Virus record (IMG/VR): IMGVR_UViG_3300019487_000071
Source: a virus
Length of the DNA: 32,903 nucleotides
Reading direction: 5' to 3' (one strand)
Position numbers and translations under genes: made by a program. Below, piece by piece: positions 11,325 through 24,278 of the stretch. The notes beneath the pieces were generated by a model. The model was given only the letters and a program-made list of their open reading frames with translations. It did no database searches and was not told where the DNA came from. Position 1 is the first letter of the stretch; each line of letters opens with the position of its first letter.

Positions 11325-11590
11325 TCTTTATCCTTTAGAAACGCCTCTTCAAAGGCCTTTTCGACAAGATCTCTGTCAGGATCTTGCATCATTATTTGCG
11401 TCTTAAGAGCTTGATATACCTTGTGTGCCGTATCGTAGTTGCTGCAAGTGCTGGTGAAGCACCATTGCCCGTTGTCTTCTTTAAGATAATCCATGGTGAC
11501 AATGTACTCTTGTCCCACTACGACTTCTTGCGGCTTAGAGAACCAACCGCCTCCACGCACTTCCTTCTTGTCCTTCTTATTGATCATCAA
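11321..11590 (-). CDS. Hypothetical protein (C-terminal FEEAFLK motif)
   Basis: 89-aa ORF coupled to the next gene. Confidence 0.6.
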   Translation of the reverse strand: MMINKKDKKEVRGGGWFSKPQEVVVGQEYIVTMDYLKEDNGQWCFTSTCSNYDTAHKVYQALKTQIMMQDPDRDLVEKAFEEAFLKDKE

Positions 11591-16306: not shown

Positions 16307-16525
16307 TGGTGTTCGCTGTAGGCCTCAAACCTACGACTCCAGCCTCAAATGCGATGTGCGGGTGGCTGGTGTTTTTTCGCGAGACGTTTCGTACTTGATT
16401 TCTATTGTTCATCAGGTCTTGTCCGGCGTTTAACCGGCTCGACGTTTCTATGAGCTTCCGCCCATCGCATTGTTACCTGACGATTTTTCAACCTTTCCTA
16501 CTAATCCTCTCTAAACTAAACGAAC
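16307..16525 (-). ncRNA. 219-nt tRNA-like (tmRNA-reminiscent) RNA
   Basis: Acceptor stem GTTCGTT/AGCGAAC + ACCA; T arm GTAGG-TTTGAGG-CCTAC; about 180-nt internal segment with long, crossing helices. Confidence 0.65.
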
Positions 16526-20344: not shown

Positions 20345-21379
20345 TTAAATCTTACCATGCGCTCCATTCTCTTTAGTAGAGTTGGGCGTGATTAGGTTAA
20401 AAGCAGCTCTCATGCGGAACTCATCTAGGGAACGAGCACCGACATAAGTCATAGAGGAACGCAAGCCGCCTTCGATGTCTTGTAGGACATAAGCAACTGG
20501 TCCTTTGCAACGAACTAGGAAGGACTCACCTTCCGCAGTGCGCCATGAACTATCTTTGCCCTGAGCTTCGTAGCTCTCTTTAGAGGCTGACCCACGATAC
20601 TTCTTGAACCATACTCCTGCACCAGCATCCAATGTCTGGACCTTTTGTCCAGGGGTTTCGTCTGTGCCAGAGAGCATTCCGCCGACCATAACAAGCTTAG
20701 CTCCAGCTGCAAGTGCCTTAGCGATATCACCTGGAGTTTTGAGTCCTCCGTCCGCAATAACGTTTGCTCCGGTTGCAACGCAATCCATGATGGCCGATAG
20801 CTGAGGAACTCCAATACCCGTCTTGATGCGAGTGGTACATGCAGAGCCTGGACCAACGCCAACCTTGTAGTAGGCAACAATCGGTGCGCCAAGATGATAC
20901 TCAAAATCTTTGATCGATTGTCCAGTTGCAAAGTTCCCTGCAGTGATGTAAACCTTGTTGCTAAGGGCATCGTGAACAGCTTTCGCTTGCTCAACAACCG
21001 CAAGTTGAGCTCCATGTGCAACATCAATGACGATGTTAGTGGCTCCCACCGTTGCTAGTGCAACAGCTCGTTCCAACTCATATTCACCTAAGCCGATAGA
21101 AATAGCGGGACCATAGCCGTTTGGCCATAGGCAGGACTTATAAATCCTCACATTATCTTCGATAGACCCGAAGCGGTGTAGGCAGCCAATTCCGCCAGCG
21201 CTACCCATTGCATTCGCCATCTCGAAACCTGTGACGGTATCCATGTTGGCAGAGATGACAGGAAGTGAGAGTTTGGCATCACCGAAGTGAGTTGTCAAGT
21301 CTACTTCCTTACGGGACTTAATGCTAGAGAAACCTGGGGCGATCAGCACATCATCGAACGTGAACAGCTGCTTGTCCAT
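20345..21379 (-). CDS. guaC: GMP reductase (IMPDH/GMPR family, no CBS domains)
   Basis: [32 protein letters not shown] and KYRGSAS; GSAS fits GuaC better than the IMPDH GMGS. Confidence 0.85.
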
Positions 21380-21387
21380 TGTGGATC

Positions 21388-21876
21388 CTATTTGAGGAGG
21401 TCAGTGAGGTGGGACCACATAGCTTCATTCTCGCCAGTGGTGTATAGAGCTTCTTTAAAGCCTTGGAACTCTTTCTTGTACATGTTTAGGAAGTCTTGCT
21501 CGTGCTCAATAGAGGCTTCAACGTTCGCAATGCGGTCAGCGAGCTTGAGAACCACTGCGTCCTTAGACGCTTTGATTTTAACGTACGTCTTGACGTGGCG
21601 TTCCTTGCGATTCTTTCCCGGCTCATTTGTGACACGCCAAACAAGGTCTCGTACGCGAGCACCAAATAGTTCTTCAATTTCTTCGAGAGAGACATCGGTG
21701 TCTTCAACTGTATCGTGAAGCCAGGCGGCCATTTGGAGTTCTTCATCGTTTACTCCGAACCTAGCAAGGACGTTAACTACAGCATACAGGTGCTTGGTGT
21801 ACGGACCACCGTCGTACTCTTGCCCTAGGTGGGCATCAGCTGCGAACTCTCTTGCTTTAGATAGAGCATCAGACAT
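21388..21876 (-). CDS. HD-domain small alarmone hydrolase (RelA/SpoT hydrolase, Mesh1-like)
   Basis: AH.GQ...PYTKHL..V, LHDTVEDT and LKLADRIAN. Confidence 0.88.
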   Translation of the reverse strand: MSDALSKAREFAADAHLGQEYDGGPYTKHLYAVVNVLARFGVNDEELQMAAWLHDTVEDTDVSLEEIEELFGARVRDLVWRVTNEPGKNRKERHVKTYVKIKASKDAVVLKLADRIANVEASIEHEQDFLNMYKKEFQGFKEALYTTGENEAMWSHLTDLLK

Positions 21877-22259
21877 TATGCACCAACGTAGATAGGTTCA
21901 CCAGGTCCTACGAAACTGTAGAGACCGTCTTTTACTTTCTTAAATTCGGCGTCAGGTGCGCGATACACCATCGAGATGTCGCGGCGAACAAAGACTTCGT
22001 TCCTCTTCTTATCGAAGTAGAGGACATAGCCTAAAGCCTCGTTTCGTTCGACATAATAATCTAAGTCTTTATCGTTGCCGTAGCAGATGAAGATACGATC
22101 ATCACGAGAACGGTCACGCTTCTTGATTTCAGACTTTTTCTTTTCCATTGGCATGGGCATATTTGTATTATACGAATTGATTTTTGATGTGGCGGAGAGC
22201 ATCCTATTCGAAAGGAACGCAGAGTGAACATGCGCGATATGCTTAGCAGACATTCCCAT
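21876..22259 (-). CDS. Hypothetical protein
   Basis: ORF coupled to the hydrolase start; true start uncertain. Confidence 0.5.
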   Translation of the reverse strand: MGMSAKHIAHVHSAFLSNRMLSATSKINSYNTNMPMPMEKKKSEIKKRDRSRDDRIFICYGNDKDLDYYVERNEALGYVLYFDKKRNEVFVRRDISMVYRAPDAEFKKVKDGLYSFVGPGEPIYVGA

Positions 22260-22288
22260 AGACCTCTATAGCTTTACTCTCCAAATTT

Positions 22289-22359
22289 TGGTACTCTCGA
22301 CTGGAATCGAACCAGTTCAGCAGCTTTAGGAAAGCTGTGCCTCGTCCTAGAGCGAGAGC
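22289..22359 (-). tRNA. tRNA-Arg(CCT), shortened D arm
   Basis: Loop TTCCTAA; 71 nt; CCA. Confidence 0.8.
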
Positions 22360-22360
22360 A

Positions 22361-22431
22361 TGGTGCCCCTAGAAAGATTCGAACTTTCCTGACCGGATTA
22401 GAAGTCCAGCTGCCTATCCATTGGTAGGGGC
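22361..22431 (-). tRNA. tRNA-Arg(TCT), shortened D arm
   Basis: Loop CTTCTAA; 71 nt; CCA. Confidence 0.82.
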
Positions 22432-22857
22432 ATTGTATTCTTTGTACGCCTTCATCATGTATTTCCACTCATCCGGCGTAAAATTTTCGTTACGTGATAT
22501 GTTACATCTAGTACAACAAGGAACTACGTTCTTGGCAACATAATCATCGTTTGAATCTAGTCTATCTAGACCTGTTCCCATTTCTTTTTCAATGCTGGTT
22601 TGACAGTAGTGACAGTCTTGTGCAATAAGCTTCGAATAAGTCGCTAAATCTATTTCAAACTTTAATCCCCGCCCTTTTGCATTGCTAATTGCATTTTTGT
22701 GACGAGAGTTGGGTTTGAACTTGTTTTCTGCATACCATTTCTGTTTATTTTTATGCTTACATTCTTTGCACAAGCATTCGTGCCCGTCTTTGTAACGTTT
22801 ACTTTTGTTAAAATCTTTTTGCTCTTTATTTATTTTACATTTTGGACATGTTTTCAT
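22414..22857 (-). CDS. HNH-type endonuclease; stop codon inside tRNA-Arg(TCT)
   Basis: CxxC motifs; CHYC...GLDRLDS..DYVAKNVVPCCTRCN. Confidence 0.88.
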   Translation of the reverse strand: MKTCPKCKINKEQKDFNKSKRYKDGHECLCKECKHKNKQKWYAENKFKPNSRHKNAISNAKGRGLKFEIDLATYSKLIAQDCHYCQTSIEKEMGTGLDRLDSNDDYVAKNVVPCCTRCNISRNENFTPDEWKYMMKAYKEYNAPTNG

Positions 22858-22906
22858 GTCTCTATTGTATTATTAGGTTCGATTAAACATCGAACCACAT
22901 AAACTT

Positions 22907-22987
22907 GGTACCGGCCAAGGGACTCGAACCCTTACGCATTAGCGGCGCGTTTTAAGTGCGCTGTGTCTGCCATTCCACCACGCCGGC
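22907..22987 (-). tRNA. tRNA-Leu(TAA)
   Basis: Loop CTTAAAA; long variable arm; CCA. Confidence 0.9.
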
Positions 22988-22989
22988 AT

Positions 22990-23066
22990 TGGTAGCCCGA
23001 GTGGGAGTCGAACCCACAAAACTCAGTTTTTGAGACTGATACGTATGCCAGTTCCGTCATCGAGCC
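22990..23066 (-). tRNA. tRNA-Leu(CAA) with short variable loop
   Basis: Loop CTCAAAA; variable region only GTTTT; CCA. Confidence 0.85.
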
Positions 23067-23071
23067 ATATT

Positions 23072-23161
23072 TGGTGGGTTGTGAAGGAGTTGAACCATTC
23101 GTCTTCCCGCTCTACCGTTTAGAGACAACTGGGTTACAGCCAGCCGTAGAGAACACAACCC
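23072..23161 (-). tRNA. Atypical tRNA-Tyr(GTA)
   Basis: GGGTTGT/ACAACCC + ACCA; loop CTGTAAC; no canonical D arm; variable region about 28 nt. Confidence 0.7.
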
Positions 23162-23167
23162 AAACTA

Positions 23168-23521
23168 TTAAACTTCATCCATTCCGAGTTTGCGACTAAT
23201 CAAGTTGCCCTGATCACTTCGCTCCTCAATCTCAACATGTCCTAGACCTGCTTCAATCTTTAGCTTTAGCCAAGATTGGAATTCAGGCGTTGCGCACATT
23301 CTTTCGAAAGCAGTCTTGCGATTTTGACTTTGCTCTCTACTGTCGGTAGCCTTGCCTTCAGCACCACTAGATTCATGAACGCAGCGAACTCCGCTTGAGG
23401 TCTTCTGACGTTTCTGTCCGCCGTCTCCGCTACCTCTAAAAACGTCCCAGCGACAGTCAGCTGCCGTCACGCTGAACATCTTCGTTCGATTCTTTTTCCT
23501 TGCGCTCGACCCATTGTTCAT
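23168..23521 (-). CDS. Class I release-factor domain protein (ArfB/YaeJ-like peptidyl-tRNA hydrolase)
   Basis: FRGSGDGGQKRQKTSSGVRCVH...SREQSQNRKTAF: standalone GGQ domain with no codon-recognition domain. Confidence 0.88.
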   Translation of the reverse strand: MNNGSSARKKNRTKMFSVTAADCRWDVFRGSGDGGQKRQKTSSGVRCVHESSGAEGKATDSREQSQNRKTAFERMCATPEFQSWLKLKIEAGLGHVEIEERSDQGNLISRKLGMDEV

Positions 23522-24247: not shown

Positions 24248-24278
24248 TGGTGCCGGCTAGTGGTTACGATCCACTGTC
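24248..24278 (-). pseudogene. Orphan tRNA 3' half (Phe-like)
   Basis: AGTGG-ATCGTAA-CCACT AGCCGGC ACCA with no matching 5' half directly upstream. Confidence 0.65.

Follow-up and report, generated by a model that had tools for sequence, protein, structure and literature searches.

The minus strand of the analysed DNA, a 32,903-nucleotide stretch from an uncultivated phage (here called the window, always at its full length), carries between two tRNA-Pro(UGG) genes a 219-nt element (16307..16525) for which the best explanation, with a probability that we place at roughly 0.55, is a conserved structured non-coding RNA, i.e., a shortened member of an uncatalogued family of phage tRNA arrays that combines a tRNA-like handle with a pseudoknotted core. 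Judged by comparative sequence evidence, the 219-nt stretch is a real, folded, non-coding RNA. Eight distinct sequences make up the family, the candidate and 7 others of 251-262 nt, all from uncultivated phages, and each of the 8 is embedded in a phage tRNA array, on the same strand as the tRNAs. The family is a new one of a known general kind, namely the structured RNAs of phage tRNA islands with tRNA-like processing ends. Its fold is a four-way junction formed by a terminal stem (P1), a stalk closed by P2, a hairpin (H3), and a 3′ hairpin (H8) stacked on P1; the stalk is roughly 140-190 nt long and irregular, and it ends in a three-way tip composed of H4, the GNRA hairpin H6, and H7.

RNA position i of the candidate corresponds to window position 16526-i, and every feature lies on the minus strand. 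RNA 1-7 (16519..16525) and RNA 209-215 (16311..16317) form P1, an acceptor-like terminal stem of 7 bp (GUUCGUU/AGCGAAC, with one G.U), after which the 3′ tail ACCA (RNA 216-219; 16307..16310) leads into the usual AAAGUU spacer of the array; with a U at -1 and CCA followed by AAAGUU, the ends of the RNA match the tRNA punctuation of the array exactly. An earlier sequence-only reading of this DNA had described the 7-bp terminal stem and ACCA as they are found here and was likewise correct that G3.U70 is absent, the pair at position 3 being U-A. The long stalk is closed by P2, in which GUUU (RNA 10-13; 16513..16516) pairs with AAAC (RNA 152-155; 16371..16374) where the other members have GUGU/GCAC at the same place, a two-sided change with the pairing kept. 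Further along the stalk, the distal helix H4 joins RNA 43-51 (16475..16483) to RNA 109-117 (16409..16417) through 9 bp with one G.U, and between its strands lie the invariant block A (RNA 55-66, AAUGCGAUGGGC; 16460..16471), the GNRA-capped hairpin H6 (RNA 61-76, GGAA loop; 16450..16465), which overlaps the 3′ part of block A, and the hairpin H7 (RNA 89-103; 16423..16437). After the stalk, H3 (RNA 157-187; 16339..16369) takes the anticodon-arm position with a 6-bp stem and a 19-nt loop holding the invariant block B (RNA 167-178, GCACAUCGCAUU; 16348..16359), and H8 (RNA 192-208; 16318..16334) takes the T-arm position, its 5-bp stem (192-196/204-208) and 7-nt loop (UUUGAGG) set directly against the 3′ strand of P1.

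The first 9 nt of block A supply the 5′ strand, and block B the 3′ strand, of a long-range pseudoknot helix with 9 perfect pairs (RNA 55-63/170-178, i.e., window 16463-16471/16348-16356) and with 11/12 positions paired over RNA 55-66/167-178, such that the perfect, extendable 8-bp helix proposed earlier is in fact slightly longer. This helix crosses TCAGGT/ACCTGA (46-51/109-114, extendable to 9 bp with one G.U) as well as CCAGCC/GGCTGG (157-162/182-187); both crossings had been recognized from the letters, and what had been counted as two pseudoknots is better described as one long-range helix crossing two nested helices. By itself the 9-bp long-range helix is weak evidence, since a perfect helix of at least 9 bp arises in ~6% of dinucleotide shuffles. 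The single-sequence fold z-score of the candidate is only -1.97, and enforcing the family helices puts its energy at -57.7 kcal/mol, versus -59.8 kcal/mol unconstrained. The signature of acceptor stem, hairpin, and NCCA is found 0-1 times per Mb of shuffled sequence, and the 3′ end of the candidate has a single possible 5′ partner, 219 nt upstream.

Covariation among homologues, which had been named as a check, proved strong. RNAalifold and pair counts were applied to the 7 long members, for which RNAalifold returned 62 pairs, 40 with compensatory changes; a standard pair was formed in 93.6% of cells, versus 31-42% when partners were slid by 1-3 columns, and pairs changed on both sides numbered 40, versus 7-16 in the slid controls. 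Not one of 500 shuffles matched any of the observed covariation measures. An alignment-free cognate-swap test on all 8 members, in which strands from the same phage were compared with strands exchanged between phages over 20000 permutations, gave swapped partners equal to the cognate total in 1/20000 cases for H4, 6/20000 for H3, and 16/20000 for P1. The sequence of H4 differs in every lineage, and the cognate partner ranks 1 of 8 in 8/8 members; among the 7 long members, 9/10 of its pairs are compensatory. P1 also differs in sequence from member to member, with 6/6 pairs varying among the 7 long members, 4 of them on both sides, and compensatory changes are further seen in the H3 stem (4/6 pairs), H7 (4/5), and H8 (5/5). 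H7 and H8 each fold as a hairpin in 8/8 members with different stems. H6 is invariant, with a 4-bp stem and a GCAA loop in all members, and is thus conserved without covariation. The G.U pairs fit the tRNA strand only. No ORF of note spans the 219-nt stretch; with the antisense included, no frame is open in all members, and just 2/36 indels are multiples of 3.

The two blocks are the most constant part of the family. Block A is identical in 8/8 members, most of which were retrieved with patterns fixing one or both strands, the searches having constrained at least part of block A; block B is identical in 7/8, with one terminal change in L067, and both L064 and L067 were retrieved without a block B constraint yet carry block B. 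The blocks are complementary at 11/12 positions, with one G.A, and beyond block A no second target of block B was found in the window. Because the blocks never vary, their pairing has no covariation support: 5/6 pairs of the pseudoknot helix are invariant, i.e., conserved without covariation. Three nucleotides of block A are claimed both by H6 and by the block pairing, so that either a 6-bp pseudoknot stacks on H6 or H6 opens to allow a longer duplex. The stalk length between blocks A and B ranges from 100 to 122 nt across members.

The homologues were sought in IMG/VR with a gapped pattern taken from both strands of the long-range helix, and patterns that fixed a single block added L061, L064, and L067. 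With the candidate as query, nhmmer recovered members at E values of 4e-6 to 0.016, and a 5-member profile that includes the candidate scored L024 at E = 3e-45, a value partly due to construction; L024 is an independent assembly of the same phage and holds an identical copy of the candidate RNA. The feature set of the family (blocks A and B, P1, P2, H3, H4, H6, H7, and H8, in the same order) is complete in the candidate, and the full-length stalk is not, in that P3, P5, and the internal pairs between them, present in the 251-262-nt members, are missing (~40 nt). On these sequence features, the candidate is a reduced variant of the family. The remaining pattern matches (L033-L034, L036-L041, L043-L049, L052-L060, L062, and L068) were chance or coding matches and were rejected by the profile search. 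Exact 31-mer and 17-mer searches of IMG/VR with the 3′ end gave nothing or coding chance matches (L050 and L051), blastn against all GenBank phages, T4 included, returned nothing, whether the query was the candidate plus its flanking tRNAs or either of two other members, and a protein-database search for further members with the antisense pseudo-ORF gave nothing.

The other carriers are mostly jumbo-phage fragments; those from IMG/VR are 19-50% complete by CheckV, which implies genomes of ~220-350 kb. The nearest relatives of the window phage (L001-L029), which were reached by way of ThyA and the adjacent 110-aa protein, GMP reductase having led to no relative in IMG/VR, have no homologue in the syntenic slot, where L001 has an unrelated 104-nt spacer, L002 nothing, and L025 a CxxC mini-ORF. 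Block A is also absent from five complete genomes of the closest relatives of the window phage, and given this absence and the small size of the family (8 sequences), the RNA would be dispensable. No partner protein is encoded near family members, and the only neighbour that their surroundings share is a mobile HNH endonuclease; the RNA is therefore the best-conserved thing in these regions.

At the window locus, the minus-strand array comprises 26 tRNAs called by ARAGORN and 3 further tRNA matches from Rfam. Genes of the window encode thymidylate synthase, GMP reductase, HNH endonucleases, an RF-1-domain (ArfB-like) protein, and an HD-domain hydrolase, some of them interleaved with tRNAs on the minus strand in the region 20345-23521, i.e., the GMP reductase/IMPDH-family protein (20345-21379), the HD_4 hydrolase (21388-21876), and the 117-aa RF-1-domain ArfB-like protein (23168-23521). 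Within the array there is also a compact class A RNase P RNA (RF00010; 23731-24039, minus strand), a full-length model match at 184 bits, which is likely the enzyme that matures the array and the 219-nt RNA; the fragments from the other carriers yielded no RNase P RNA. For the candidate RNA, no promoter or terminator of its own was detected above chance.

The conserved tRNA-like part of the family is limited to geometry, namely P1 (6-7 bp) with the abutting H8 (4-5 bp), or ~12 bp in all as in the acceptor/T-stem stack of a tRNA, and a 3′ tail that is single-stranded. The D arm and the anticodon arm are absent, and the H8 loop, at 4-9 nt and with unrelated sequences across the 8 members, is not a T loop. 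The T arm proposed from the sequence thus survives as a 5-bp hairpin abutting the terminal stem and not as a T loop, the candidate loop UUUGAGG having no C56, a nucleotide found in every other T-arm-type 3′ end on the strand of the array. ACCA follows P1 directly in 3/8 members (the candidate, L030, and L042), against a chance of 1 in 64 per member, and an encoded CCA is missing in 5/8. Of the suggestion that this might be a new class of phage tRNA mimic, what holds is a structured RNA absent from Rfam 15, with the mimicry reduced to the ~12-bp stack and ACCA in 3/8 members.

We suggest the following course for the RNA. The 219-nt RNA would be transcribed together with the neighbouring tRNAs, and the ~12-bp stack of P1 and H8 with a single-stranded (A)CCA-type tail would imitate the acceptor/T-stem half of a tRNA. 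RNase P, for which this phage supplies its own RNA, would cut the 5′ end, and the tRNA 3′-end machinery would trim the 3′ end and add CCA where it is not encoded; these steps would release the RNA from the tRNA transcript. The tRNA-like part would thus serve as a processing and stability handle rather than a decoding device, and charging is unlikely for an RNA that lacks an anticodon arm, a D arm, and a T loop and whose acceptor sequence is unconserved. RNase P recognition normally uses the T loop, and an H8 without a T loop, together with the 5/8 members without an encoded CCA, counts against this view of RNase P and CCA maturation. The working part would be the conserved core, in which block A/block B pairing may lock the tip of the stalk onto the H3 loop and so present the surrounding invariant unpaired nucleotides, including an A-rich strand, as a surface for a binding partner, most plausibly one from the tRNA or translation machinery.

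Phage tRNA islands are already known for large structured RNAs, i.e., ROOL, GOLLD, and T4 RNAC and RNAD, to which a well-supported new family is now added. The genes of RNAC and RNAD belong to the tRNA gene cluster of T4, and the two RNAs mature alongside the tRNAs. Also known as the species 1 and 2 stable RNAs of T4, they are small stable RNAs whose functions are still unknown (PMC9697503). Like the present family, they come from a phage with tRNA genes of its own; they are smaller (~120-140 nt), and blastn of three family members against GenBank phages, T4 included, gave no sequence match. ROOL and GOLLD are structured phage and prophage ncRNAs, often near tRNA islands, of unknown function and with proven self-assembly (PMC12286853). 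The present family shares with them pseudoknots, the absence of a dedicated protein partner nearby, and a tRNA-gene context (8/8 here), the last being a likeness of context and not of homology. It differs in length (219-262 nt versus 500-800+ nt) and in forming, with its tRNA-like ends, a unit of the array flanked by tRNAs, and neither Rfam model matched it; self-assembly, proven in ROOL and GOLLD, is for this family a conjecture based on the invariant complementary blocks. Rfam 15 searched with the candidate at E values up to 10 returned no family, including tmRNA, group I introns, ROOL, GOLLD, and Y RNAs, which answers the earlier call for a covariance-model check, and at the gathering score the 7 other members gave no Rfam match for the RNA. 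Its short length (220-260 nt), clear covarying architecture, and invariant pseudoknot or kissing pair make the family a tractable object of study, and its tRNA-like termini tie its predicted maturation to RNase P, here phage-encoded. It opens questions as to the role of such RNAs in infection and the reuse of tRNA-processing signals to release other RNAs, and the family alignment makes possible a covariance model for annotating jumbo-phage genomes.

Among rival accounts, the one to which we give most weight, while still considering it doubtful, is that blocks A and B pair between molecules, giving an antiparallel homodimer, rings, or a larger assembly like those of ROOL and GOLLD, which offer a precedent (PMC12286853). 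In its favour, the two invariant blocks are complementary over 12 nt apart from one G.A, and an antiparallel dimer would automatically tolerate both the 100-122-nt block spacing and the ~40-nt deficit of the candidate; this variable spacing, together with the connector of just 3 nt that ties the 3′ side of block B to the H3 stem and that by established pseudoknot geometry would be short for spanning a 9-12-bp helix in cis, may mildly favour pairing in trans. The same nucleotides could, however, form the 6-bp cis pseudoknot stacked on H6, which is sterically plausible, and the conserved A-rich strand that follows H6, of a kind that compact intramolecular pseudoknots typically have, would favour a compact cis fold; the RNA is moreover far smaller than ROOL and GOLLD, neither of whose models it matched. 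Taken further, and just as tentatively, the family might be a compact self-assembling phage RNA whose tRNA-like handle lets the tRNA machinery of the cell cut out the building blocks. If true, phage tRNA islands would have yielded, besides ROOL and GOLLD, a third class of RNA-only assembly, much smaller than those two and built from an RNA small enough for easy genetics and structure work. It is improbable, in our estimation, that the RNA instead acts as a decoy or sponge, its tRNA-like top half with CCA soaking up a tRNA-acting enzyme (e.g., a host anti-phage tRNA nuclease, a CCA-modifying toxin, RNase P, or the CCA-adding enzyme) and thereby protecting the tRNA supply of the phage. Such a role would suit an RNA that is always embedded among phage tRNAs, that has a 12-bp stack like that of an acceptor/T stem with ACCA in 3/8 members, and that in the window phage accompanies a translation-maintenance island (ArfB-like factor, HD-domain hydrolase, and RNase P RNA); yet it has no need of a covarying stalk of 150-200 nt and the invariant pseudoknot blocks and leaves the conserved core unexplained, the CCA and loops that are the usual recognition elements are the least conserved parts, and no known anticodon-nuclease target loop is present.

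The preferred reading, i.e., a structured RNA released from the array by a tRNA-like handle, has also to be set against three accounts that take the element for something of a different kind. In tmRNA, the paired ends form an acceptor-like stem with a stacked hairpin and a CCA tail on a pseudoknotted body, RNase P takes part in processing, and some large phages encode it beside their tRNAs. That the candidate is a miniature rescue RNA of this type, with its ends entering the A site and a short frame after the A-rich strand serving as the tag, is very unlikely in our view. By eye, every member has a pseudoknot strand with a hairpin, an A-rich run, and a stop-terminated frame of 10-23 codons, the ends are tRNA-like, and the phage has other rescue factors such as the RF-1-domain ArfB-like protein. 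The putative tags, however, differ in length and sequence, have no common hydrophobic C-terminus, and lie in covarying helices, and only 2/36 indels are multiples of three; the short frames are unrelated across members, which bears out the earlier remark that no tag peptide is apparent. Compared with tmRNA (RF00023 and its clan), the family is ~100 nt shorter and has neither G3.U70, T loop, nor conserved tag, the acceptor sequence differs in each member, CCA is absent in 5/8, and the junction is four-way rather than three-way. ARAGORN in tmRNA mode, another of the proposed checks, made no call in 8/8 members even at a relaxed threshold, and no Rfam tmRNA family matched. L031, besides its family member at 2369-2630, carries a bona fide tmRNA (RF00023; 13710-14094, plus strand; 106 bits, not reported by ARAGORN), and the resemblance to a tmRNA layout on which the first reading had remarked is thus superficial.

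Nor do we give more than a very slim chance to an intron-containing tRNA, in which ~133 nt (RNA 42-174) would be removed to leave an 86-nt tRNA-Phe(GAA)-like cloverleaf. Every possible internal segment was deleted and ARAGORN was also run in intron mode: at a lowered threshold it reads the candidate as tRNA-Phe(GAA) interrupted by a 133-nt intron, and among the artificial deletions it accepts only those of ~133 nt, from RNA 37-169 up to 42-174; at the default threshold the candidate draws no call with or without intron mode. In the product, just 2/4 pairs of the D stem would form, the A/U-rich anticodon stem would contain a G.A mismatch, and a variable region of 12 nt would be unpaired; 0/7 of the other members give a tRNA call, their 3′ hairpin loops not being T loops, and the putative intron contains the conserved covarying core. 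At 133 nt it would be far below known group I introns, Intron_gpI had no match at E up to 10, and the window already encodes a tRNA-Phe(GAA). With tRNA (RF00005) the candidate shares a 7-bp terminal stem, a 5-bp abutting hairpin, a discriminator A, CCA, a four-way junction, and the array punctuation, and it differs in its 219 nt, in having no D arm, anticodon stem-loop, or T-loop consensus, and in drawing no call from ARAGORN or Rfam; the earlier judgement that it is not an ordinary tRNA, tmRNA, or intron-containing tRNA is upheld by ARAGORN and Rfam 15. Scarcely credible, finally, is a DNA-level inverted repeat, i.e., a protein-binding site or the remnant of a mobile element with an incidental RNA fold. 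The blocks never vary and amount to a 12-bp inverted repeat 100-122 bp apart, with HNH homing endonuclease genes frequent nearby, but a DNA function does not predict that eleven other helices covary with G.U valid on the tRNA strand only; no terminal repeats or target duplications were seen, and the ends coincide with the tRNA punctuation.

Several minor observations concern the arrays themselves. In the window, a 71-nt unit at 22289-22359 (minus strand) has a canonical T arm (loop TTCGATT), 7-bp acceptor pairing, and ACCA and is called as a tRNA by neither ARAGORN nor Rfam. At ~24248-24275 (minus strand), a T-arm-like hairpin is followed by 7 nt and then ACCA; no 5′ acceptor strand to match it occurs within 460 nt, and the unit is possibly a minihelix or half-tRNA. 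Resemblance to 16S rRNA was rejected as a family feature, since overall it does not exceed chance and 5 members, the candidate among them, do not show it; on opposite stalk strands of L035 and L061 (~RNA 27-35 and 164-181), two 9-mers equal parts of the 3′ minor domain of E. coli 16S rRNA, at the adjacent 16S positions 1501 and 1511, and are nominally unusual in three members (L035, L061, and L030). Directly upstream of the family member, L031 (~2290-2365) and L030 (~11330-11414) carry CCA-ended, acceptor-paired RNAs of ~80 nt that no tRNA caller recognized, and these phages seem rich in non-canonical tRNA-like units. In L001, the closest relative of the window phage, the unrelated 104-nt sequence in the slot of the RNA (2108-2211) reads by eye as a cloverleaf without CCA, and in the relatives with 75% identity the gap from tRNA-Pro to tRNA-Ile is filled by a 55-aa ORF with two CxxC pairs (L025, 5619-5786, plus strand). 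The tRNA-Pro/tRNA-Ile gap of L001 (2291-2421) and L002 (2429-2541) holds an element that reads like a circularly permuted tRNA, in the order T arm, acceptor 3′ strand, GCAA loop, acceptor 5′ strand, and D arm.
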